Below are positions 5,235 to 32,914 of a stretch of 38,790 nucleotides of DNA, piece after piece. The translations under genes and the position numbers were made by a program. This DNA comes from a virus. Location: IMG/VR virus record IMGVR_UViG_3300009964_000017, one strand, 5' to 3'. Each line of letters starts with the position of its first letter. The first letter of the stretch is position 1. The notes under the pieces were generated by a model. It was given only the letters and a program-made list of their open reading frames with translations. It did no database searches and was not told where the DNA came from.

Positions 5235-6302
5235 ATGGCAACCATGTTTATGGATACTGAACATCTCGCAGACAACGGTGTAAACGCCCGTGTCGTCGAG
5301 GCAGCCCGCACCTTCCGCAAGGGCATGACCGGAAGCTACTCGGATCAGGCGCGCCTACAAGAGGCGCTCTCCACCTCTGATTTCCCTGCTCTGCTCGGAC
5401 AGGCACTCGAATTCGAGGTACTCGACCTCTTCCGCTCCTACACGAAGGCTTGGGAAGGCGTCGCAGACACCACCACCGTATCTGATTTTCGCCCCAAATC
5501 GTTGCGCGGCCTCTACGGCGCAATCGACTACCTGCCCATCAACGAGGCAGAAGAGTACAAGGCCGCATCACTGGCTGAGACCGAACACAAAATCAACGTG
5601 GAAACCTACGGTCGCCTGTTCAAGTTCACCCGTCAAATGAAGATTAACAAGGACTGGGACATCCTCGCACGCATCCCTGAGCGTCTCGCTAAGGGCGCGG
5701 CCATGAAGGAAGACCAGGCAGTGTTCGGTGCGCTAACCGGTGCAAACGGTGTAAACCGTGAGTTCTTCAAGGACGCTTACGCACCCGACAACAAGCCGTT
5801 GACCGCTGAAAACCTCATGGCAGCATACACGACCCTTGCTCAGCGTAAGGGTCTGGATGATGGGGTTGCGGACATTAGCAAGCTCGTGCTTGTCGTCCCG
5901 CGCGCCCTAGAAATGGCTGCACGCCGCATCCTCGAAGCAGAATACATTGACGTTACCGAGGGCAAGGTAAAGACCCGTGAGACTAACATTCTCAAGGGTC
6001 TGTTCACCTTGAAGGTTGTGGATATTCTGACTCGCCTCGACAAGTCAGCTACCGCTAACACCACCTGGTACATTCTGCCTGCTGCAGGCTCCGCGAACCC
6101 CGCACTTATCAAGGCATCCTTGCAGGGTTATGAGCAGCCTGACCTGCGTGTCGAATCAGCTGCTGGCCGTTCCATCAGCGGCGCAGACGTCGCACCTGAG
6201 GAAGGCAGCTTCCTTGACGACACGATCAGCTACCGTGGCCGCCACGAAGTAGGCGCAGCAACCCTGTTCCCGTTCGCAGCCTACGCATCCACCGGAGCAT
6301 AA
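5235..6302 (+). CDS. Major capsid protein
   Basis: A 355-aa ORF with a good RBS (aaggag) follows the scaffold and decoration genes and precedes the connector genes. Assignment rests on size and position. Confidence 0.8.
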   Translation: MATMFMDTEHLADNGVNARVVEAARTFRKGMTGSYSDQARLQEALSTSDFPALLGQALEFEVLDLFRSYTKAWEGVADTTTVSDFRPKSLRGLYGAIDYLPINEAEEYKAASLAETEHKINVETYGRLFKFTRQMKINKDWDILARIPERLAKGAAMKEDQAVFGALTGANGVNREFFKDAYAPDNKPLTAENLMAAYTTLAQRKGLDDGVADISKLVLVVPRALEMAARRILEAEYIDVTEGKVKTRETNILKGLFTLKVVDILTRLDKSATANTTWYILPAAGSANPALIKASLQGYEQPDLRVESAAGRSISGADVAPEEGSFLDDTISYRGRHEVGAATLFPFAAYASTGA

Positions 6303-6344
6303 AAGACCAGGTAACCCAGCCGCTGTTTTAGAAAGGGATTCACG

Positions 6345-6785
6345 TTGAGTACACAAGAAATTATTTACCAGATTCGCTTGCTCATTAACGACCTGCCACC
6401 TAAAACAGCGGCAGGGGAACCGTCACCTCTCAACCCCACTGAGAGCTGCATCTTCTCCGACCGAGACCTAGAGGTACTCTACAACCTCGAAGCCTCCTAC
6501 ATTGAACGTGTGAAGGTGAAACGTGCCGCAGCACGCGCACTCCGCCGCATGGCAACCGACGAGGTTATCCTCTCCAAAAAGATAACCACTCAAGACCTCT
6601 CCGTAGACGGGCCAGCTGTTTCATCCGCGCTCCTAGAACAGGCAGACAAGCTAGACGCCGAAGCCGATAGAGACGCTGGCGAAGCAGCAGGTGTCGGGGC
6701 GTTCTGGCAGACACTAGACCAGCTAGACCACCATGCAGAAGGCGAAGAGCGAAGGAGCGAAAGTTTCTATGGCTCGATATGGTGA
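6345..6785 (+). CDS. Head-tail connector / adaptor protein (gp6-like)
   Basis: The TTG start is preceded by the RBS gaaaggga. This is the first gene after the capsid gene, and its N-terminus (EIIYQIRLLINDLPP) is typical of head-tail connector proteins. Confidence 0.5.
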   Translation: MSTQEIIYQIRLLINDLPPKTAAGEPSPLNPTESCIFSDRDLEVLYNLEASYIERVKVKRAAARALRRMATDEVILSKKITTQDLSVDGPAVSSALLEQADKLDAEADRDAGEAAGVGAFWQTLDQLDHHAEGEERRSESFYGSIW

Positions 6786-9918: not shown

Positions 9919-9933
9919 CAGAATAGGGGTTGT

Positions 9934-12900
9934 GTGCCTGTGGCTAAGTCAAACGAGCAGCAAGTAAAGATAGTTCTCAAGGCTGACGCGAAAGCGTTCA
10001 CCGCAGGCATGCAAGCCGCCTCTAAGGCTGCTAGGGAAGCCGCGAATGCTTCACAGTCGGCGATGAAGAGAGCCGCTGAGCAGAACGTTAAAGAGCAAAA
10101 AGCCGGTCTCAACAAGATGCGCGAAACCATGCGCGACACTACGAAGGATGCAAAGAACGTTGCAGATCAGGTAAGTAAGATTGGGCGTGCAGGCACTGAT
10201 GCTGGCCGCAATGCGAGAGCTGGCCTCCAAGGCATAGGCACTGGTGTTGCTAAAGATGCTAAAGCCGCGCAGTCGTCTATCGCGTCTATCGGTGATGGTG
10301 CGGCTGCGGCTGGGAAGAATATACAGTCAAGCCTACACAATAGTGTGAACGCCGCGACAAGCAATATTCGTAGCCAGGTGGCCGCGACCGGTGAAGCTGG
10401 GAAGATAGCAGGGGAAGGCATCGCTTCAGGTGTCCGAGCTGGCGCTAACAAGGCCGCTGATGCTGTCGCTGGTATCGGTGCTGGTGCCGCACAGGCGGGG
10501 AAAGCAACAGCTGAGGGCATCAAATCTGGGTTGTCTGAGGCTGCTGCCGCGACCTCGGCGCTCACCAGTGCGCAGAGGAAGCAGCACACGGAGGCTGTGG
10601 CTGCTATGGCTGCTGCATCCCAGCAGGCGGCGCAGCGCGCAGCTACCGCTAACCTGAATACTATTCGCGGGTCTTCGGCTGCTGTAGCGGCTGCTACCGC
10701 TGCAGGTGCCGCGCAGGCTGCCTCAGCTCAGATACGTTCACATGGTACGGTGGTTGAGGCTGTTGCAGCTGGTAACGCCGCTATGTCGCGTTCCACGCGC
10801 ACACTGACTGCTACACAGGTTGCCGCGTACTCTGCGGCAGCATCAGCTAGTGTGGCTGGCCTGAATCAGCGTTATAACGTGTTTACTGGTATGACTCGTG
10901 CCGAAACTGCAGCCTATAGGGCTTCTATTGCGGCGTCACGTGAGGCGGCTGGCTCTATCACAGGGATTATGCAGCGCGCCTCACAGTCAGCAGCAGTAGG
11001 GTGGCGTGACTATGCTTCTGCGGCGTCGTCCTCATTCAAATCTGTTGCCAGCGGCGCAGCAGACGCATTCAAATCATCCAGGCTCGGATCATCCATCATC
11101 TACAGTGACTTGGTGACCGGTGCACGCGCCGCAGCATCACAAACAGCTGACGCTATTAGGACACCTATAGCAGGCGCTTTCACGAGTGTTCGTGAACGCT
11201 CCACCAGCGCGGTATCGGGGCTTGCCTCAGATTTCAGGCAGGCTGGTACTGAGGCTAAAAACCTCGCCTCCAATATCCTGTCTAATAAAGACGCTTTGGA
11301 TAAGATCGCGTCCGGTGCAGGAATCACGGGTGCTGCCCTGCTTGCACCGTTCGCTCTGGCGGTGAAACAGTACGCAGATTTTGATGCTGCTATGGCTGGC
11401 GTCCAGGCTGCAACCCATGAAACTGCAGGGAATATGGAGAAGTTACGCACCGCCGCAATCAACGCAGGTGCCGACACCAAATATTCCGGTAAGGAAGCTG
11501 CACAGGGCATCGAAGAGTTGGCTAAGGCCGGTGTCGACACGACAGATATTCTCTCTGGTGGCCTCAACGGTGCACTATCGCTGGCCGCAGCAGGTAATAT
11601 CCAGGTTGGGGATGCTGCCGAGCTAGCAGCAACCGCAATGACACAGTTCAAGCTCAAAGGTGCTGACCTTGAGCATGTCGCCGACCTCCTAGCTGCTGGC
11701 GCAGGTAAAGCTCAAGGCTCTGTGGGCGACCTCGGGTACGCTCTCAAACAGTCAGGGTTGGTGGCGTCTCAAACAGGCCTCACCATTGAAGAAACGACCG
11801 GTACATTAGCCGCGTTCGCATCCGCTGGGCTTATCGGATCGGACGCCGGTACCTCATTCAAAGTGATGCTTCAGAAACTGCAGAACCCGTCTAAACAGGC
11901 TGCGGGATTGATGAAGGAATACGGCATTTCGCTGTATGACTCGACAGGAAAGTTCAAAGGCATCACAGCTGTTGCCGCAGATTTGAAACGTGGCCTGCAA
12001 GACCTCACACCGGCGCAGCGTGACGCAGCAATGGCAACCATTTTCGGTTCTGACGCTGTGCGTGCCGCATCCGTGCTCTACACTGCGGGCGGGGAAGGCA
12101 TACAAGAGTGGATCGACAAGACTAACGATGCTGGATATGCTGCCTCTACGGCTGCGATTCAGCAGAATAACCTTGCCGGCGATATTGAGAAACTCGGCGG
12201 CGCTATCGACTCTGCCGTACTCAAATCCTCTGGCGGTATCAACGAGGTTCTGCGTGGAATAACACAGTTCGTTACCGGTATCGTCGATTTCATCGGCAAA
12301 CTGCCTGCCCCGTTCCTCGCTGTGAACCTTGCAGTCGTCGGTTTGACGGGTGTCGTTCTGCTGACTGTTGCAGCCGCGGCTAAAATGATTTCAGCGTACC
12401 AGACGGTGAAGGGTACGCTGGCGTCGTATTCGGCTGCTGCCCGTGGCGCTACAGCTGCTACAGAAGGGTTAGCAGCTTCATCGTCTACGGCTGCGGCTGG
12501 TGGTTCCAAGCTCGGCGGCTTTGTCTCTAGCTTCGCTAAAATCGCGGGGACAGCGGCACTAGCTGCCGAAGGGGTCACGCTCTTTATCAGTGCGTTCAAC
12601 ACCGATTTTAAGGCACCGTCCGTCGATAAGATGAACAGCGCGTTGAAAACGACCGGCGGCAACCTGGATGCTGTGAACCAGCAGTTTAAAGACATGGGCG
12701 GTAAAGCTACCTGGGCTTTCCTCGGCATGGAAGACCAGGTGCCAAAGGTAAATGGCCTGGGCGAGGCTCTCGTTAAGTTGAAATCTGATGCAGGCGACGC
12801 AATGGAAGGTTTCAGCCAGTGGGTATCTCACACAGCCGGGGCTAAAGTCGGTGCAGACGCGTTCAAAGAGGCCGTGAACAACCTGGACGATTCGTTATCC

Positions 12901-21905: not shown

Positions 21906-22775
21906 ATGGGTTATCAACTCGTGACTGACCGCGACGCAAAGAATTTCACTCTCGGCTCGCAGGTGCCAGCAGTCTTTGGCTACCAGCGTGTGATTACAAA
22001 CATTACGCTCCACTGGTGGGGTAAGCCGGAGTGGAAGCAAACCTGGGAGCAAGTCATGAATTTTTTCTGCGACTCGCCCAGTGTTACTACTAGCGCTCAT
22101 GAGGTCATCTCTGACGGTATTGTCGGTTTGATTGTGGATCATTCCGCCGCCGCTTGGGCTAACGGCAACTCACAGGGGAATGCTCAGAGTATCACGCTTG
22201 AATGCAACCCACGCATGAGCGTGGGAGATATGGGGACGGTAGCAGCCAGAATCGCCGATATATGGCGAGAGCAGGGGCGTATATTGCCTTTGACTGAGCA
22301 TCGAGATTGGTTCGCTACCGAATGCCCAGGCACCTATTCTAAGGCCGAGATGACTAGGCAGGCGATGCTCGCATATAAGGGTGTCGCAGCAGAAATCCAA
22401 ACAGCAATCAATGAAGGGGGTCTATCGGTGGCAGACATCGAGACCATTAACAAGAAGCTGGATTCCATCGCAGAGGGTATCCAGTACATTATTTCGTATT
22501 CGCAGCCTGGACGTGAAGGCATCAACGTTGACTCCACAACCGCGAATTGGATGCGTAATAGTGCCCGTGCCGCCGAGTCCTGGGCATACGGTATCGACGG
22601 TGTTTCGCATCAGGGACAGCTCAACCGTGAATTCCAGGATTTGCGCGCTAAGGTCAATGAGCTTGTGTCGCGCCCGGTCGCACAGTCTACGCAGGTTAGC
22701 ATCCAGGCGGACGATCTGCGGGCTGTAATTCGTGAAGAGCTATCTAATATCCGTTTGAAGGGAGAGGCTGCGTAA
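21906..22775 (+). CDS. Endolysin, N-acetylmuramoyl-L-alanine amidase (Amidase_2/PGRP type) with an unassigned C-terminal domain
   Basis: The RBS is strong (aaaggagg). Motifs ITLHWWG, SAHEVISD, AWANGNSQGNAQSITLE and EHRDWFATECPG are typical of Amidase_2. Confidence 0.85.
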   Translation: MGYQLVTDRDAKNFTLGSQVPAVFGYQRVITNITLHWWGKPEWKQTWEQVMNFFCDSPSVTTSAHEVISDGIVGLIVDHSAAAWANGNSQGNAQSITLECNPRMSVGDMGTVAARIADIWREQGRILPLTEHRDWFATECPGTYSKAEMTRQAMLAYKGVAAEIQTAINEGGLSVADIETINKKLDSIAEGIQYIISYSQPGREGINVDSTTANWMRNSARAAESWAYGIDGVSHQGQLNREFQDLRAKVNELVSRPVAQSTQVSIQADDLRAVIREELSNIRLKGEAA

Positions 22776-22776
22776 A

Positions 22777-23346
22777 ATGGCAGATAACACTACTAATGAG
22801 ACCCGATTCGTGGGTAATGTAACTAAGTCCACTACCGGCGCTACTTTGTTTGCTGGTTCGATCCTAACCATCGTAAATTATGGTCTCGCCCAGGCAGGTA
22901 TCACTATTCCTGCTGAGGTGCAGACAGCCGCTGTTACCGTGATTCTTGGTCTGGTTGTGCTGATTACTGGCCGGAATACTCGCGGCGAGAAGGCGCATCT
23001 TGAGGGTGCTATCCAGGGTGAGACCGCATCGGCGCTGGCAAATCTCGATTTGTACGAGGTTTTGGAGGCTATCGCTGATGGTGTGGCTGCTGATGCACGG
23101 AACGCGGCACCGCATGAGGCTGATGGTCGCGCTGCTTTTGAGGAGTACCGTAATACTGGTACAGTGCAGCCCGTGCAGCCTGCACAGCCTGATACTGTTG
23201 CTTATGATATGACCGGTGGCCGCGTATACCGTTTTGGGGAGCCTGGCGCTCCTGAGGGTGGCTCTGAGGGGCAGATTTATGATCCGCGTGTTGGTTGGGT
23301 TGATGATGTGCCCGACCAGTTCGGTAACGAGTCCGTACCGCACTAA
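22777..23346 (+). CDS. Holin-like membrane protein
   Basis: The gene lies directly after the endolysin gene. It has two predicted TM segments (ATLFAGSILTIVNYGLAQAGI and AAVTVILGLVVLITG) and a long acidic tail. Confidence 0.6.
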   Translation: MADNTTNETRFVGNVTKSTTGATLFAGSILTIVNYGLAQAGITIPAEVQTAAVTVILGLVVLITGRNTRGEKAHLEGAIQGETASALANLDLYEVLEAIADGVAADARNAAPHEADGRAAFEEYRNTGTVQPVQPAQPDTVAYDMTGGRVYRFGEPGAPEGGSEGQIYDPRVGWVDDVPDQFGNESVPH

Positions 23347-23380
23347 ACTTTGCAGCTATAAATGTTGAATAGTTGAACTA

Positions 23381-23426
23381 GATGCCCCGCAGCTCTAAAA
23401 ATTTGAGCTGCGGGGCATCTTTTTTG
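23381..23426 (+). terminator. Rho-independent terminator closing the late operon
   Basis: A perfect 15-bp stem joins gatgccccgcagctc (23381-23395) and gagctgcggggcatc (23405-23419), with a 9-nt loop followed by TTTTTT. Confidence 0.8.
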
Positions 23427-23461
23427 CTTCCAAAAAATCCTTCTATAGGTTATTTGACAAG

Positions 23462-23686
23462 TTACGAGTGTTTCTGTCGGTACGCTTCTGATTTCCGATC
23501 CCCGCCAGGTTGTGGACGAGAAACATACCAAGCAGTCAACTGGTTAGCAGTCCATGCATGCTTGTTATCAACTATAATGGCAGGCTTAGGTAGTGGATGC
23601 TTCTTGTTGATGCGGGGAAGGGTATAGGCGGCGATACATAAATATTTCTCAGCCCCTCGCATGGTAAAAAATGGCCCTAAAGTCAT
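23462..23686 (-). CDS. Hypothetical basic 74-aa protein, distal gene of the AT-rich moron operon
   Basis: The ATG is preceded by AAGAGGAGG, which lies inside the end of the upstream gene. The intergenic gap is 6 nt, and the region is visibly AT-richer than its flanks. Confidence 0.5.
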   Translation of the reverse strand: MTLGPFFTMRGAEKYLCIAAYTLPRINKKHPLPKPAIIVDNKHAWTANQLTAWYVSRPQPGGDRKSEAYRQKHS

Positions 23687-23692
23687 TTGCTG

Positions 23693-23971
23693 CTACACCT
23701 CCTCTTTACTTAGAGATGTAAAGACAGCTCGCACACCTTGAATATGTGGCTGCTGCTCAATTCTATTGTCTCCTTGGGTCGCAGCATAATGTTTGAGACA
23801 GTCATAAACAGATCGTCCCACTGCCACAGTCTTTCCATTATTATCACGTGCAGCCCATTGCCGTGTCCGCTGAAAAAAGCTGCCTTTGCCTTTCATTGTG
23901 GCAACTTGCTCACCGTCTTTGTGAATTTCTACCTCAGAGTAGCTCCGCGAGTGTAACGTGTATTTTGTCAT
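23693..23971 (-). CDS. Hypothetical 92-aa protein, proximal gene of the AT-rich moron operon
   Basis: The track ORF 23693..24019 begins at a TTG. I prefer the first ATG (MTKYTLHS...) at 23971, though its RBS is weak. It is coupled to the downstream 74-aa ORF. Confidence 0.5.
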   Translation of the reverse strand: MTKYTLHSRSYSEVEIHKDGEQVATMKGKGSFFQRTRQWAARDNNGKTVAVGRSVYDCLKHYAATQGDNRIEQQPHIQGVRAVFTSLSKEEV

Positions 23972-24134
23972 TCTTATTGCCTTATCTTTTTCTGTCAGTG
24001 CCGTATTACCCTGACACAATCAAGTGTAAGCTATTTATACAGTTGAAAGCAAGTTTATATAGAGTTAAACAGCCTGCAAAATTTTTGAAAGTGGTGAGTT
24101 TATCGTGAATCCGTCCACCAGATAGTAATAAAAA

Positions 24135-24150
24135 CCTTGTAATTACAAGG
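24135..24150. promoter_or_regulatory. Perfect 16-bp palindrome CCTTGTAATTACAAGG; a minus-strand terminator after int (a T-run follows on that strand) or an attP core candidate
   Basis: The palindrome is read directly. On the - strand it is followed by TTTTTATT, and it lies 170 nt downstream of the int stop. Confidence 0.3.
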
Positions 24151-24319
24151 AAGTTGCACCGAAATCTAAAATCATATCTAAATTTCGTCACCTTCACCTA
24201 TCATCCCTAAAACTCAAGTCATACAATCCCGCGCACCGTGTATTCACAAGACCACAAGAGACTGAAACATATTTTAGAGTTCCTTAAAGTTCTTTATAAT
24301 CCTGTGCAAAATAGTGAGT

Positions 24320-25399
24320 TTATAGTGACTCACCATAAAGCGCCTTCTGCAGCACTGCCGAATTATCGGCGATGCCGCGCCGCTCAATATACGACCTGCG
24401 AGTCATAGAATCCTTCTCATGCCCCAATTGCACGGACGCAGCATTAGAGCCAGCAGCACGATCAATCAGTGTTGCCACCGTCCGCCGGAACGTGTGGAAC
24501 GTAACCCACTCCCAACTACTGCCCCGCAAAACGTTCCTGAGCACAGTCCCCGCGTTCGCGCCAGTCAATAGTCCACCACGCGAACCCACAAAAACAAATT
24601 CAGAGACACGCGGAACAGAAGAAAGCGCATCTATAATCCCAGCAGGCAGAATGACCGCACGAGCATGCCCAGTCTTCGTGTGCGCCTGCCAGCTCTTCGT
24701 GCGATCCACGACAGTTCCTCTAATTGTGCACTGCCGCGTCTCAAAATCAATATCTTGCCAGCGAATACCTAGCGCCTCACCAACCCGCGCACCTGTTGCC
24801 AGTAAGAAATCGACGAGTAAGGGAAGCCAAGCGCGGCCTTCACAACTATTCGCCAGATACTGCCGTAGCTCTATAATCTGTTCCACGGTCAGCGCTTTAG
24901 GTATTTTTCGTGCAGCAGGTGTTGCAGGGACTAGAGACATCGGGTTTGTGGTGATCGTGCCGTTGATAACTTCTCTATCTAGAGCCATTTTGAGGACGCG
25001 GCGGCATGTGCTTACTGTGGTTGGTTTAGCGTCTAGCTCTGTGATGTATCGGTAGAGCATCGGTGTTGATAGCTCGTGCACCTGCAGGTTGCCTATGTCT
25101 TTGCTGACGCGTTCTACTGCTGCCGTGTATGTTGGTTTGGTTTGCGGCGCGACCTTGTGTTGTCCTAGCCAGGATTCTAGAGCTTCTCGTAGCGTGGTTA
25201 TGGTAGCGCCGTGGGTGGTGAGGTTTTCGAGTTTTGCGGTTAGTCGTCGTTGAGCTGCCGCTTTGGTGGTTGCGCGCGCGGTTACGTCACGGCGCTTGCC
25301 GTATTGGTCTCTATAGTATGTTCTTGCGACCCATTGCCCTGTTTCTGTTTTGCGGGCGCTAATTTTTCCGTGCTGTCCTGGCGGTGTTCTGGGGCGCAT
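24320..25399 (-). CDS. int: Tyrosine integrase (site-specific recombinase)
   Basis: The 359-aa protein has an N-terminal SAM-like domain. Its catalytic signature comprises ATGARVGEALGIRWQDI (Arg), HTFRRTVATL (H-x-x-R) and LGHEKDSMTRRSYIER (His...Tyr). Confidence 0.9.
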   Translation of the reverse strand: MRPRTPPGQHGKISARKTETGQWVARTYYRDQYGKRRDVTARATTKAAAQRRLTAKLENLTTHGATITTLREALESWLGQHKVAPQTKPTYTAAVERVSKDIGNLQVHELSTPMLYRYITELDAKPTTVSTCRRVLKMALDREVINGTITTNPMSLVPATPAARKIPKALTVEQIIELRQYLANSCEGRAWLPLLVDFLLATGARVGEALGIRWQDIDFETRQCTIRGTVVDRTKSWQAHTKTGHARAVILPAGIIDALSSVPRVSEFVFVGSRGGLLTGANAGTVLRNVLRGSSWEWVTFHTFRRTVATLIDRAAGSNAASVQLGHEKDSMTRRSYIERRGIADNSAVLQKALYGESL

Positions 25400-25924: not shown

Positions 25925-26173
25925 ATGAAAAAACAAAATATGGGAGAGCTAGTAGCCGAAAACATCACACTAGCACTCAAAAAGAGAAAGCTCACTCAAA
26001 AAGCTCTCTCATGTAAAACCGGCATAACCCACGCCAGAATACAAGGCATAGCCTCAGGCACACGGGTAGCCACACTAGACGAAATACAGGCGATCTCAAA
26101 CGCAATGACCATCCCAATGGAATGGTTCGTAAGAGAACACCTCACCGAACTAAACGACTGGAAGAAAGGATAA
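25925..26173 (+). CDS. Cro-like HTH regulator (XRE family)
   Basis: The HTH region is KLTQKALSCKTGITHARIQGIASGTRVATLDEIQAISNAM. It is the first gene of the rightward early operon. Confidence 0.75.
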   Translation: MKKQNMGELVAENITLALKKRKLTQKALSCKTGITHARIQGIASGTRVATLDEIQAISNAMTIPMEWFVREHLTELNDWKKG

Positions 26174-26405: not shown

Positions 26406-26624
26406 ATGTCACTCACCATCAAAAACGAAACATGGTTCACACCAAGAGAAGTAGCCGAATGGCTCGGACTCACAGAACAAACCCTCAACAAATGGCGGTC
26501 AGCAGGACAAGGGCCCACCTACGTATCAACCACCAACGGCACACGAGGCGGACGAATCCTCTACAAAGAAACCGACATACACAACTGGCTCAACAGCCTA
26601 GAACCACAAAAAACCATCCACTAA
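26406..26624 (+). CDS. Excisionase-family / MerR-type HTH DNA-binding protein (Xis candidate)
   Basis: The RBS is ggagga. The sequence FTPREVAEWLGLTEQTLNKWRSAGQGPTY...ILYKETDIHNWL matches the HTH_17/excisionase pattern. Confidence 0.6.
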   Translation: MSLTIKNETWFTPREVAEWLGLTEQTLNKWRSAGQGPTYVSTTNGTRGGRILYKETDIHNWLNSLEPQKTIH

Positions 26625-30274: not shown

Positions 30275-32914
30275 ATGGCACAAGCACCTATTCACCCAAT
30301 CGCAGCCGCAGCACAGCACCTAGCACAAGCTAACGTCTCCTTCATCCCAACCCGCGCAGACACCAGCAAAGGCCCCGCCGTCGCCTGGAAAGAATTCCAG
30401 TCACGCAAACCAACCCTAGCGGATCAGACAAAATGGTTCGGCACGGAAAACCCACGCAACTACGGTGTAGCAGTCGTCACCGGCAGGGTCTCAGGCAACC
30501 TTGAGATGACCGAAATCGAAGGGAAAATAGCCGACCGGATACCCGAAATTACGAAGGCGTTCGTGGCTGCTGGTGAGCGCGCCCTGTGGCAGCGTCTCAT
30601 GACCTCCTGGGTCGAACAATCACCCACCGGCGGCATGCACTGGATATACCGCCTCGACGGAGAAAACGTACCAGGAAACACAAAGATTGCGACCAATGCT
30701 GACGGTGAAGTACTCGCTGAAACCCGTGGTGAAGGCGGCTACTTCGTAGCAGCACCCACAGACGGCACACACCACTCCACCGGCCAAGGATGGGTAGCAC
30801 TCGGTTTACCCGCAGCATGCACCACCCTAACCGCTACCGAACGTGAAACTTTTCACCGCATCCTCCGTGAAACCTTCCACGAAGGCACAGAGACACCAAA
30901 ACACCCCCAGACAGGTAATCACACCCAAGGCACACGAAAGACTTTCCCTGCCACCGTAGAAGGCCAGCAGGCGGGTGTTATGAACCTGGGCGTGAAACCT
31001 GGGGACGAATTCGAGACAAAAACTGACTGGGCTGACATTCTCACCCCGCACGGCTGGTCTCTACACTCAACCCAGGCAGACGGAACCAGGTTCTGGGTGC
31101 GCCCAGGCAAAAACCCGCGCGACGGGCACTCAGCCTCCACCGGCCACGCAGACGACCGAGACCGCCTCTACGTCTTCTCCTCATCCGTCCAAGAATTCGA
31201 CACTGACACCCCATACACAAAATTCAAAGCATACTCGATCCTCAACCACGGAGGCGACGACACCAAGGCAGCAAAACACCTTGCCGCAAACGGATTCGGA
31301 ACCCCCACAACACTCAATATCAGCCTAGACGACATGCTAGGCACCAACACAACAGGAGGCCAACAATGGCAGCAGAAGGACAAATCGTCAACCCAGTACC
31401 ACAACCAAAACCAGCAACCCATCTCGCCGAGCTCTGCAGAGTCCACGGCCCCATCACCGGGTACCGGAACATCTCAGGCGACATCTGGGCAGTCAGATTC
31501 CAAGACGGCGCCCAGCACGTCCAAAAAAAGCAATAACCTAGAAATCCCCGCATACACCGAGTTCGCGTTCACCCAGGCGTTCATCGCTGAGCACGGCAAA
31601 AACATTCGCTACAACACTGACCGAGGCCGCTTCTACTATTGGGGTGGCAAACGGTGGGTACCTCAACCAGACACGGGCGGTATCATCAAGCAGCACGCGT
31701 TAGCATTCGCCGCGCAGCTCCCAGATGAAGACGATGCAGCACTCAAACGCTTGAAGGCGTCCATGCTGTCGAATCGTGGCGTGACTGCGGCACTGAATCT
31801 ATTGAAGGTTGATCCGAGGGTTGCGTGCACGTCTGATGATTTTGATACGAGGCCTTGGGAGTTGAATACTCCTGCTGGCATTGTTGATTTGCGGACAGGT
31901 AGTGTTCGGGCGCATGACCCGGCGATGATGCACTCAAAAATCACCACTGTAGCCCCTGTAGCCTCCTCTGAGGCACCTATATGGTCTAGGTTCTTGCAGA
32001 CTACATTCAATGCAGATTCGGCGCTTATAGGGTACATGCAGCGTCTTTTAGGGTATTCCGCAACCGGTGCTATCCGTGAGCATGTTTTCGCTTTCGCATA
32101 CGGTACCGGCGGAAACGGTAAATCAGTTTTCTATGATGCCTGTGTAGACGTCCTCGGAGACTACGCAACGGTCATGCCTGCAGGATTCCTCATGAAAAAG
32201 TCATATCAAGAGCACTCTACCGAATTAGCAGACCTCAAGGGAATGCGCCTTGTGGTTGGTTCAGAAATCAACCAGGGCGAAAAATTCGACGAGGCTAAGT
32301 TGAAGTCTTTGACTGGTGGTGACCGGATCAAGGCACGACATATGCATCAGGACTTCTTCACCTTCACGCCGACACATCATCTGCACCTGATGGGCAACCA
32401 TTTGCCGCAGGTTGAGGCTGGCGGGGATTCTATCTGGCGGCGTATGAATCAGATACCGTTCGTGCATACTGTCCCTGCTGAGGAGAGGAACGAGCGGCTG
32501 CCTGAGCAGCTGCGTACTGAGGAGGCTGGGCAGATTCTGGCTTGGATTATTGAAGGAGCAAAGATGTATCACCAGGACGGGTTACAGGCACCGGAGGCTG
32601 TGCGTGCGGCTACTGCGGCTTATGCGCAGAGTCAGGATACGGTGGGTGAATTCTTGAGTCAGGAGTGCACGATGTATCCCGGCAACGAGTTCTATACGGC
32701 TTCTGTGAAGCAGTTTCGTATGGAGTATGAGGCTTGGTGTCAGGGTGAGGGTGTTAGTCCGCTCAAGGGGCGTTCTTTGACTGCTGCGCTTGCTTCTCAT
32801 GGTGTTCTGGTGGGTAGGAATGCTCCGAGGGCTGGGAATGGGAATGATCGTGTCTATGGTGGGGTTAGGTTGAATTCTCATGAGGAGAGTTTGAGTAATT
32901 CCCCGTGGCAGTGA
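30275..32914 (+). CDS. Bifunctional primase-polymerase (PrimPol) fused to a D5/P4-type SF3 helicase
   Basis: The N-terminus (VSFIPTR...KGPAVAWKEFQSRKPT...YGVAVVTG) is PrimPol-like. A long Ser/Thr/Gln-rich linker follows. The C-terminal half has the Walker A GTGGNGKS and Walker B-like RLVVGSE typical of P4-family primase-helicases. Confidence 0.9.
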   Translation: MAQAPIHPIAAAAQHLAQANVSFIPTRADTSKGPAVAWKEFQSRKPTLADQTKWFGTENPRNYGVAVVTGRVSGNLEMTEIEGKIADRIPEITKAFVAAGERALWQRLMTSWVEQSPTGGMHWIYRLDGENVPGNTKIATNADGEVLAETRGEGGYFVAAPTDGTHHSTGQGWVALGLPAACTTLTATERETFHRILRETFHEGTETPKHPQTGNHTQGTRKTFPATVEGQQAGVMNLGVKPGDEFETKTDWADILTPHGWSLHSTQADGTRFWVRPGKNPRDGHSASTGHADDRDRLYVFSSSVQEFDTDTPYTKFKAYSILNHGGDDTKAAKHLAANGFGTPTTLNISLDDMLGTNTTGGQQWQQKDKSSTQYHNQNQQPISPSSAESTAPSPGTGTSQATSGQSDSKTAPSTSKKSNNLEIPAYTEFAFTQAFIAEHGKNIRYNTDRGRFYYWGGKRWVPQPDTGGIIKQHALAFAAQLPDEDDAALKRLKASMLSNRGVTAALNLLKVDPRVACTSDDFDTRPWELNTPAGIVDLRTGSVRAHDPAMMHSKITTVAPVASSEAPIWSRFLQTTFNADSALIGYMQRLLGYSATGAIREHVFAFAYGTGGNGKSVFYDACVDVLGDYATVMPAGFLMKKSYQEHSTELADLKGMRLVVGSEINQGEKFDEAKLKSLTGGDRIKARHMHQDFFTFTPTHHLHLMGNHLPQVEAGGDSIWRRMNQIPFVHTVPAEERNERLPEQLRTEEAGQILAWIIEGAKMYHQDGLQAPEAVRAATAAYAQSQDTVGEFLSQECTMYPGNEFYTASVKQFRMEYEAWCQGEGVSPLKGRSLTAALASHGVLVGRNAPRAGNGNDRVYGGVRLNSHEESLSNSPWQ

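Follow-up and report, generated by a model that had tools for sequence, protein, structure and literature searches.

Small DNA-binding proteins of the MerR/excisionase (MerR/Xis) kind, including the actinophage 'excise' or MerR-like helix-turn-helix (HTH) proteins, the members of PHROG 597 and PHROG 66, Streptomyces BldC, RdfS and Tn916 Xis, are basic and about 55-80 amino acids (aa) long. Two-gene units between the lysis cassette and the integrase gene with its phage attachment site (int/attP) are known from cluster N mycobacteriophages, with Butters gp30/gp31 as an example, and reverse-order type II toxin-antitoxin (TA) systems of the HigBA/MqsRA type join a small basic protein to a coupled HTH protein. 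In this study, we analysed two small leftward open reading frames (ORFs), ORF1 and ORF2, of the IMG/VR virus record IMGVR_UViG_3300009964_000017, the whole 38,790-nucleotide stretch of which is referred to below as the window. An earlier note, made from the letters alone, had described these two ORFs as a moron, an AT-rich cargo unit of TA or defence character. We show here that ORF2 is, according to its structural model, a winged-helix DNA-binding protein of the MerR/excisionase superfamily and not a toxin, and the TA/defence label gives way to that of a MerR/Xis-type DNA-binding protein coupled with an orphan small protein.

The AlphaFold2 model of ORF2 (predicted local distance difference test score, pLDDT, 82) comprises a beta strand, helices at residues 9-16 and 22-29, a wing formed by strands 37-39 and 42-45 and a third helix at residues 47-56, followed by a low-confidence basic tail; the modelled order is thus the beta-alpha-alpha-wing-alpha topology of about 50-60 residues that is expected of MerR/Xis winged helices. 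Foldseek aligned this model with BmrR, NmlR, RacA, BldC, TraN, RdfS and Tn916 Xis, with probabilities up to 0.99. All eight ORF2 family members matched PHROG 597 ('DNA binding protein'; best E-value 2.9e-14, window protein 1.2e-4) and six of the eight matched PHROG 66 ('excisionase and transcriptional regulator'), and weak tblastn matches linked ORF2 to 'excise' and HTH genes of actinophages. The very basic nature ascribed to the distal product by the earlier note is confirmed by an isoelectric point (pI) of 10.1, with 12 K+R and 4 D+E residues. An exhaustive HMMER pass over 1.84 billion proteins recovered a tiny family of six representatives (at 50% identity), on which the model was built; within the familiar class of small DNA-binding proteins, ORF2 forms a new branch with few members. 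A borderline PDB-profile match to the homeodomain-only protein HOP (E 1.2e-3) was taken as generic helix-turn-helix likeness, the model of ORF2 having a beta wing. Residues 57-70, which are of low confidence in the model, form a tail, RPxxGGDR(K/R)Sxx(F/Y), that is nearly invariant in all relatives, including those without ORF1.

The description of the locus in the earlier note, two leftward ORFs of 92 and 74 aa lying 6 nt apart in an AT-richer segment, proved accurate. The TAG codon of ORF1 (23695-23693) is followed by cagcaa and then by the ATG of ORF2, and the Shine-Dalgarno sequence AAGAGGAGG of ORF2 lies, as had been stated, in the last codons of ORF1. While an alternative 108-aa ORF1 with a TTG start appears in the ORF listing, we place the start at the ATG at 23971, because the N-terminus MTKYTLHS is invariant in homologues P0003-P0010, down to 43% identity. 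The GC content is 0.459 in ORF1, 0.471 in ORF2 and 0.356 in the 348-bp spacer 23972-24319, against 0.525 in the whole window and 0.54 in int, and GC at third codon positions is 0.41-0.44 in the pair against 0.51-0.58 in int, the lysin gene and the tape-measure gene. The ratio of nonsynonymous to synonymous divergence (dN/dS) against close relatives is 0.13-0.33 for the ORFs, about 0.13-0.15 for ORF1, and against the divergent relative L001 dN is 0.23-0.34 with dS saturated; both ORFs are genuine genes under purifying selection. Translational coupling is kept elsewhere, by a 4-nt ATGA overlap in L001 and an overlap of about 26 nt in L034 and L035. In the metagenome contig L013 (GCA_015473185.1, 76,785 bp, about twice the phage genome), frameshifts split both genes of the pair (9932-10420); our guess is that this contig is a long-read concatemer with indel errors and that the split genes are not true pseudogenes.

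Upstream of ORF1, the conserved non-coding DNA consists only of a putative sigma-70-like promoter and a hairpin (Table 1). The promoter was not detected by a generic promoter scan. It contains the dyad TCAAc-N17-CTTGA (24046-24020; general form TCAAG-N17-CTTGA), which runs from just past the -35 element into the -10 element. In 776 kb of related loci we counted about 35 copies of the exact dyad where about 0.7 would be expected (roughly 50-fold), each of them at the head of an operon, and a promoter of this type heads every operon holding an ORF2 relative, both in the int-to-lysis slot of temperate phages and in the early replication operons that we term class II; the window has a single copy. 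Across the phage group the promoter takes the form TTGnTT(T)CAAG-N17-CTTGA, with the -10 element as TAcACTTGA and a stem-loop of varying sequence within about 7 nt, and phages encoding SNF2, VapE and PolA carry several copies per genome. In the window, the stem-loop lies at the predicted 5' end of the transcript, with an RNA folding energy of -10 kcal/mol (z = -3.2). An alignment of 11 distinct sequences showed 93.9% of cells paired, with two compensatory pairs and two G.U variants in different sub-lineages, and unrelated stems occupy the equivalent position behind L018-type and class II promoters; within the window the hairpin dyad has one exact copy and no second. Hairpins at the 5' end usually protect mRNA from 5'-end-dependent decay, and we infer that this one is a 5'-terminal mRNA stem-loop with a stabilising role.

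As it stands, the pair is an ordinary uncharacterised accessory operon. The reading that we prefer, and put forward tentatively, is that of a self-contained accessory regulatory operon in which ORF2 binds DNA, most likely autoregulating through this promoter class, and ORF1 acts as its partner or modulator or as an effector. The dyad promoter would drive a transcript that begins with the stabilising stem-loop and encodes two translationally coupled small basic proteins; ORF2 would bind the dyad promoter class and so regulate its own operon, and ORF1 would be made in fixed proportion to ORF2, as partner or modulator or as the effector of the cassette. MerR-type regulators typically have operators of this geometry, a dyad across the promoter spacer. 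We favour ORF2 as the binder of the dyad promoter because of this geometry and because the ORF2 family and the promoter co-occur perfectly in our sample. A comparison of the pair promoter with the repressor/cro intergenic region gave no shared 14-mer at two or fewer mismatches, thus nothing suggests control of the pair by the phage immunity repressor; since no operator for that repressor was detected at the pair promoter, expression of the pair from the prophage is plausible from the sequence.

Several observations weigh against this reading. The Foldseek E-values of ORF2 are weak (0.014 or higher) for a domain of only about 55 residues, Pfam HTH_17 and NCBIfam TIGR01764 gave no significant match to ORF2, and ORF2 has no counterpart of the coiled-coil dimerisation helix of true MerR regulators. 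The link between dyad and ORF2 comes from co-occurrence among related phages, which common descent alone could produce. In class II phages the dyad promoter type also heads several other early operons, and it may simply be a strong early promoter for host RNA polymerase that has no dedicated regulator. An apparent natural ORF1-ORF2 fusion, P0016 (152 aa, L016 402-860), was not relied on: it arises from a single 1-nt deletion in one contig, which may reflect either an error in sequencing or a fusion that is tolerated, and six contigs keep separate overlapping genes where P0016 appears fused (L034/L035, about 5902-6345).

Table 1. Features of the ORF1-ORF2 locus, examples of the phage-group promoter and lineages that carry the pair.
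Feature	Position	Strand	Description
ORF1	23971..23693	-	92 aa, basic, beta-rich, orphan family; starts MTKYTLHS
ORF2	23686..23462	-	74 aa, basic, predicted MerR/Xis-type winged-helix DNA-binding protein; conserved tail RPxxGGDRKS
Shine-Dalgarno AAGAGGAGG of ORF2	23706-23698	-	within last ORF1 codons, 11 nt ahead of ORF2 ATG
Terminator hairpin, 19-bp stem	23380-23398 / 23402-23420	.	inverted repeat; T-run after it on + strand only
Sigma-70-like promoter of the pair (putative)	24020..24052	-	-35 TTGCTT 24052-24047, 18-nt spacer, -10 TACACT 24028-24023
5' stem-loop	23993..24016	-	UGUCAG, 12-nt loop, CUGACA; at predicted transcript 5' end
Probable attP	24088..24328	.	two 21-nt direct repeats, 24088-24108 and 24308-24328, 220 bp apart
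Examples of phage-group promoter	L019 7572, 8950, 16712, 19545; L046 2148, 3526; L060 544, 1921; window 24020-24052		
Lineage 1			window type
Lineage 2			L001/L063 type; unrelated integrase; 4-nt ATGA overlap
Lineage 3			L034/L047-55 type; integrase 45% identical; gene overlap of about 26 nt; extra 118-aa gene
Lineage 4			L018/L043/L045 type; another integrase; 65-aa acidic gene first; 132-aa gene between ORF1-like and ORF2-like genes

The two families are linked in temperate phages, and each also occurs alone. The stretch from int to the lysis cassette in temperate relatives always has the ORF1-like gene ahead of the ORF2-like gene; this order is seen in four lineages, which together have at least three types of integrase (Table 1). 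ORF2 relatives without ORF1 (class II) were found at 12 IMG/VR loci and in L017, L019 and L020, in an early replication operon with the gene order VRR_NUC, 120-aa gene, 70-aa acidic gene, ORF2-like gene, SNF2 helicase and VapE, and with no integrase within 5 kb. ORF1 relatives without ORF2 (87 aa, 43-47% identical) lie in the non-phage islands L012, L014 and L015. The persistence of the pair beside unrelated integrases, together with the occurrence of each family alone, argues against both an obligate TA pair and an integrase-specific excisionase. The islands (L012 10001-10668, L014 10001-10661, L015 5213-5873) have a GC content of about 0.48 and carry genes for an AgI/II-type surface adhesin and an SF1 helicase, DUF488/HD genes and TnpB; there the ORF1-like gene is followed by that of a 70-aa acidic protein, kin of the acidic genes beside phage ORF2 relatives (L018 7233-7430, L019 9716-9928).

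Like ORF2, ORF1 is basic (pI 9.4). Its AlphaFold2 model (pLDDT 84) shows a five-strand antiparallel meander, one helix and two further strands. Among PDB structures there was no convincing match, the top one (1zxu, tubby/LURP-like) spanning 51 columns only. In BFVD the model resembles many small uncharacterised phage proteins (template modelling score up to 0.7 on the target), including gp8 of phage N4, which we take to be a host replication inhibitor and which serves as a lead only. ORF1 has few homologues: P0003-P0007 share 67-96% identity with it, P0008-P0010 are the 87-aa proteins of 43-47% identity, and conservation in the most divergent relatives (82 aa in L034, 80 aa in L018) is confined to hydrophobic positions, Gly, one Trp and one Cys. 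ORF1 is therefore more easily seen as a module for binding or scaffolding than as a toxin of the enzyme type, since its divergent relatives retain no catalytic-type residues. A bolder proposal, to which we give a slim chance, is that ORF1 founds a new family of small effectors (for anti-phage exclusion, host take-over or a new kind of reverse-order toxin) restrained by ORF2, in a portable self-regulated cassette; relatives are spread among phages of oral Actinobacteria and non-phage islands.

The window looks like a complete temperate siphophage genome of about 38.8 kb. Its structural and lysis genes run rightward and end in an amidase (21906-22775) and a 189-aa holin-like protein (22777-23346); four leftward genes follow, ORF2, ORF1, a tyrosine integrase (25399-24320) and a repressor with HTH_26/HTH_3 domains (25775-25452), and the rightward early genes start with a cro-like gene at 25925. 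The late-operon terminator by which the earlier note bounded the pair is found here as the inverted repeat with its plus-strand T-run (Table 1); the hairpin at 23380-23420 terminates the convergent late operon in canonical fashion, and read from the pair it has no U-tract. Other small genes, some of them encoding distant ORF2-like HTH proteins, fill the corresponding int-to-lysis slot of Rothia phage Spartoi and Caudovirus D_HF5_3. Thus the pair has features expected of a moron: a conserved promoter of its own, presumably active and presumably expressed in the lysogen, a terminal hairpin, a GC content of 0.46-0.47 against 0.525 and a variable slot.

Spartoi infects Rothia dentocariosa, from the oral cavity, and because the lysin of the window phage shares 64% identity with lysin A of Spartoi, an oral Rothia is probably the host of the window phage too; the portal shares 61% identity with its counterpart in a Caudovirus from saliva. 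Many human metagenomes contain near-identical genomes as contigs of about 38 kb, and none of these contigs exceeds 50 kb. The region had no nucleotide match among GenBank phages by megablast, and two scans of one genome per species for 185,579 species yielded no ORF1 relative and no close integrase relative. No tRNA gene was found in the window, and Rfam gave no match above gathering score; at E <= 5, region 23340-24400 had chance-level matches only, none of them to tRNA. An 879-aa protein encoded at 30275-32914 (plus strand) is the primase-helicase of the window phage, near-identical copies of which in relatives carry Prim-Pol, D5_N and DUF5906 domains.

On its other side the pair had been said to adjoin the att/int region, and this boundary holds. 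Region 24088-24328 probably represents attP with integrase arm-type sites, to judge from its 21-nt repeats, which occur twice against 0.07 expected; the second copy overlaps the int stop codon. Between the repeats, just downstream of int, lies a terminator-like hairpin (24135-24150, CCTTGTAATTACAAGG followed by a T-run), and L016 and L034, of a related lineage, have the same repeats at the identical spacing of 220 bp. Neither attB nor a tRNA fragment was found. Integration would place int at one prophage end and ORF1-ORF2 at the other, reading inward to the lysis genes. The third gene of the rightward early operon (26406-26624, plus strand) encodes a 72-aa 'excise'-like protein with HTH_17 and TIGR01764 matches and weak BldC likeness, which is, by sequence, the more conventional excisionase candidate of the window phage. 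Between the window and L001, both this gene and the integrase are replaced by unrelated sequence, with ORF2 57% identical and the pair 57-70% identical.

One alternative would make ORF2 an excisionase (recombination directionality factor), or an accessory of such a factor, that bends attP or attR DNA near the integrase with ORF1 as a helper. This is possible but in our view unlikely. ORF2 is indeed a small basic protein modelled as an Xis-type winged helix, with RdfS and Tn916 Xis among its structural matches and a match to PHROG 66, its gene adjoins the probable attP at some 630 bp from the int stop, and its int-proximal position is constant in the four lineages. However, the early operon already holds the 'excise'-like gene, and an excisionase would be expected to follow its cognate integrase: in L001 the integrase, which has no BLASTP similarity to that of the window, and the 'excise'-like gene are swapped and the 24088-24328 region is absent, yet ORF2 stays. 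The class II relatives, moreover, sit in replication modules with no integrase nearby, and the conserved non-coding DNA upstream of the pair is promoter and hairpin, not attP. A second proposal, in which the pair would serve defence or superinfection exclusion and be expressed from the prophage, with ORF1 as effector and ORF2 as regulator by analogy with Butters gp30/gp31, seems to us more doubtful still. It would fit the location, the own promoter and terminator, the AT-rich composition, the variable slot, the absence of a detectable phage-repressor operator at the pair promoter and the presence of ORF1 relatives in non-phage mobile islands. Passages of PMC10700106 that cite Dedrick 2017 and Mageeney 2020 provide a precedent for both location and two-gene organisation, and the precedent systems of cluster N likewise lack PADLOC or DefenseFinder matches. 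The argument is nevertheless one of position. PADLOC gave no match, membrane segments and enzymatic signatures are absent from both ORF1 and ORF2, no charged residue in either is invariant across lineages, and the occurrence of ORF2 relatives with the dyad promoter in early replication operons of other phages points to a role in the lytic cycle.

A reverse-order type II TA system, with ORF1 as toxin and ORF2 as DNA-binding autoregulating antitoxin, is very unlikely. Its layout is present, namely a shared dyad promoter, a 92-aa basic protein, a tightly coupled HTH protein with a 6-nt gap and an embedded ribosome-binding site, and one terminator, and the conserved low-confidence C-terminal tail of ORF2 could be a partner-binding peptide. 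Yet neither obligate co-occurrence nor a known toxin or antitoxin fold was found: class II relatives of ORF2 keep the tail without ORF1, ORF1 relatives exist without ORF2, a 132-aa gene parts the two in the L018 type, the ORF1 model matches no RelE/HigB, MqsR, HicA or MazF structure, and its divergent relatives conserve hydrophobics, Gly, Trp and Cys but no catalytic-type residues. The fold search and the scans of defence and TA models that had been suggested as checks gave a MerR/Xis-type result for ORF2, no convincing match for ORF1 and, for both proteins, nothing among the toxin, antitoxin and defence models of Pfam and NCBIfam and 0 families at E <= 1 in PADLOC-DB v2. Of the moron that the earlier note described, the architecture therefore stands (a coupled unit, a conserved promoter of its own, deviant composition, a variable slot) and the TA/defence content does not, given the winged-helix model of ORF2, these empty scans and two families that are not obligately linked. 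The same note had seen in ORF2 a faint likeness to PemK/MazF, and the reading that follows from it, a truncated MazF/PemK-like toxin neutralised by ORF1, is effectively refuted by the structural model. Its support was a short visual motif, KPAIIVDN, which forms the wing beta-hairpin (strands 37-39 and 42-45) of that model; Pfam PemK/MazF (PF02452) has no match at E <= 10 in any of the eight ORF2 family members, and the toxin reading is rejected because ORF2 models as a winged helix whose structural neighbours are all MerR/Xis DNA-binding domains.

With ORF2 read as the putative regulator of an accessory operon, our results describe a cassette of dyad promoter, 5' hairpin, ORF1-like gene and ORF2-like gene that recurs in phages of human oral Actinobacteria. 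To our knowledge, almost nothing is known of phage-host biology in Rothia, and if it is expressed from the prophage, the cassette would be a candidate for lysogenic conversion or exclusion in this genus. Among known systems, ORF2 comes closest to the small MerR/Xis proteins introduced above, whose size and charge it has, and it shares with them the predicted beta-alpha-alpha-wing-alpha order with a W..x..W(Y/I) pattern in helix 3, as well as the PHROG 597/66 and structural matches. Rothia phage Spartoi gp31, a distant relative that occupies the same int-to-lysis slot, bears the annotation helix-turn-helix DNA binding domain protein. ORF2 differs from these proteins in falling below the Pfam HTH_17 and TIGR01764 thresholds, in the family-specific tail RPxxGGDRKSxxF and very small family, and in its conserved coupling downstream of an orphan beta-rich protein. 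The cluster N cassettes resemble the pair in being two-gene units between lysis cassette and int/attP of an actinobacteriophage, with slot contents that vary among relatives and no defence-database matches, but they have no similarity to it in sequence or fold, and Butters gp31 is a membrane protein, whereas ORF1 and ORF2 have no predicted membrane segment. HigBA and MqsRA share with the pair a dyad promoter, a small basic protein and a coupled HTH protein; they differ in that the putative toxin of the pair has no homology or fold match to theirs and that the ORF1 and ORF2 families are separable in nature. With MazF/PemK, an SH3-like barrel of about 110 aa, ORF2 has in common a short hydrophobic beta-strand motif only, being too short, modelled as a winged helix and without a profile match. 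Thus it is to the small MerR/Xis DNA-binding proteins that ORF2 is most closely comparable.

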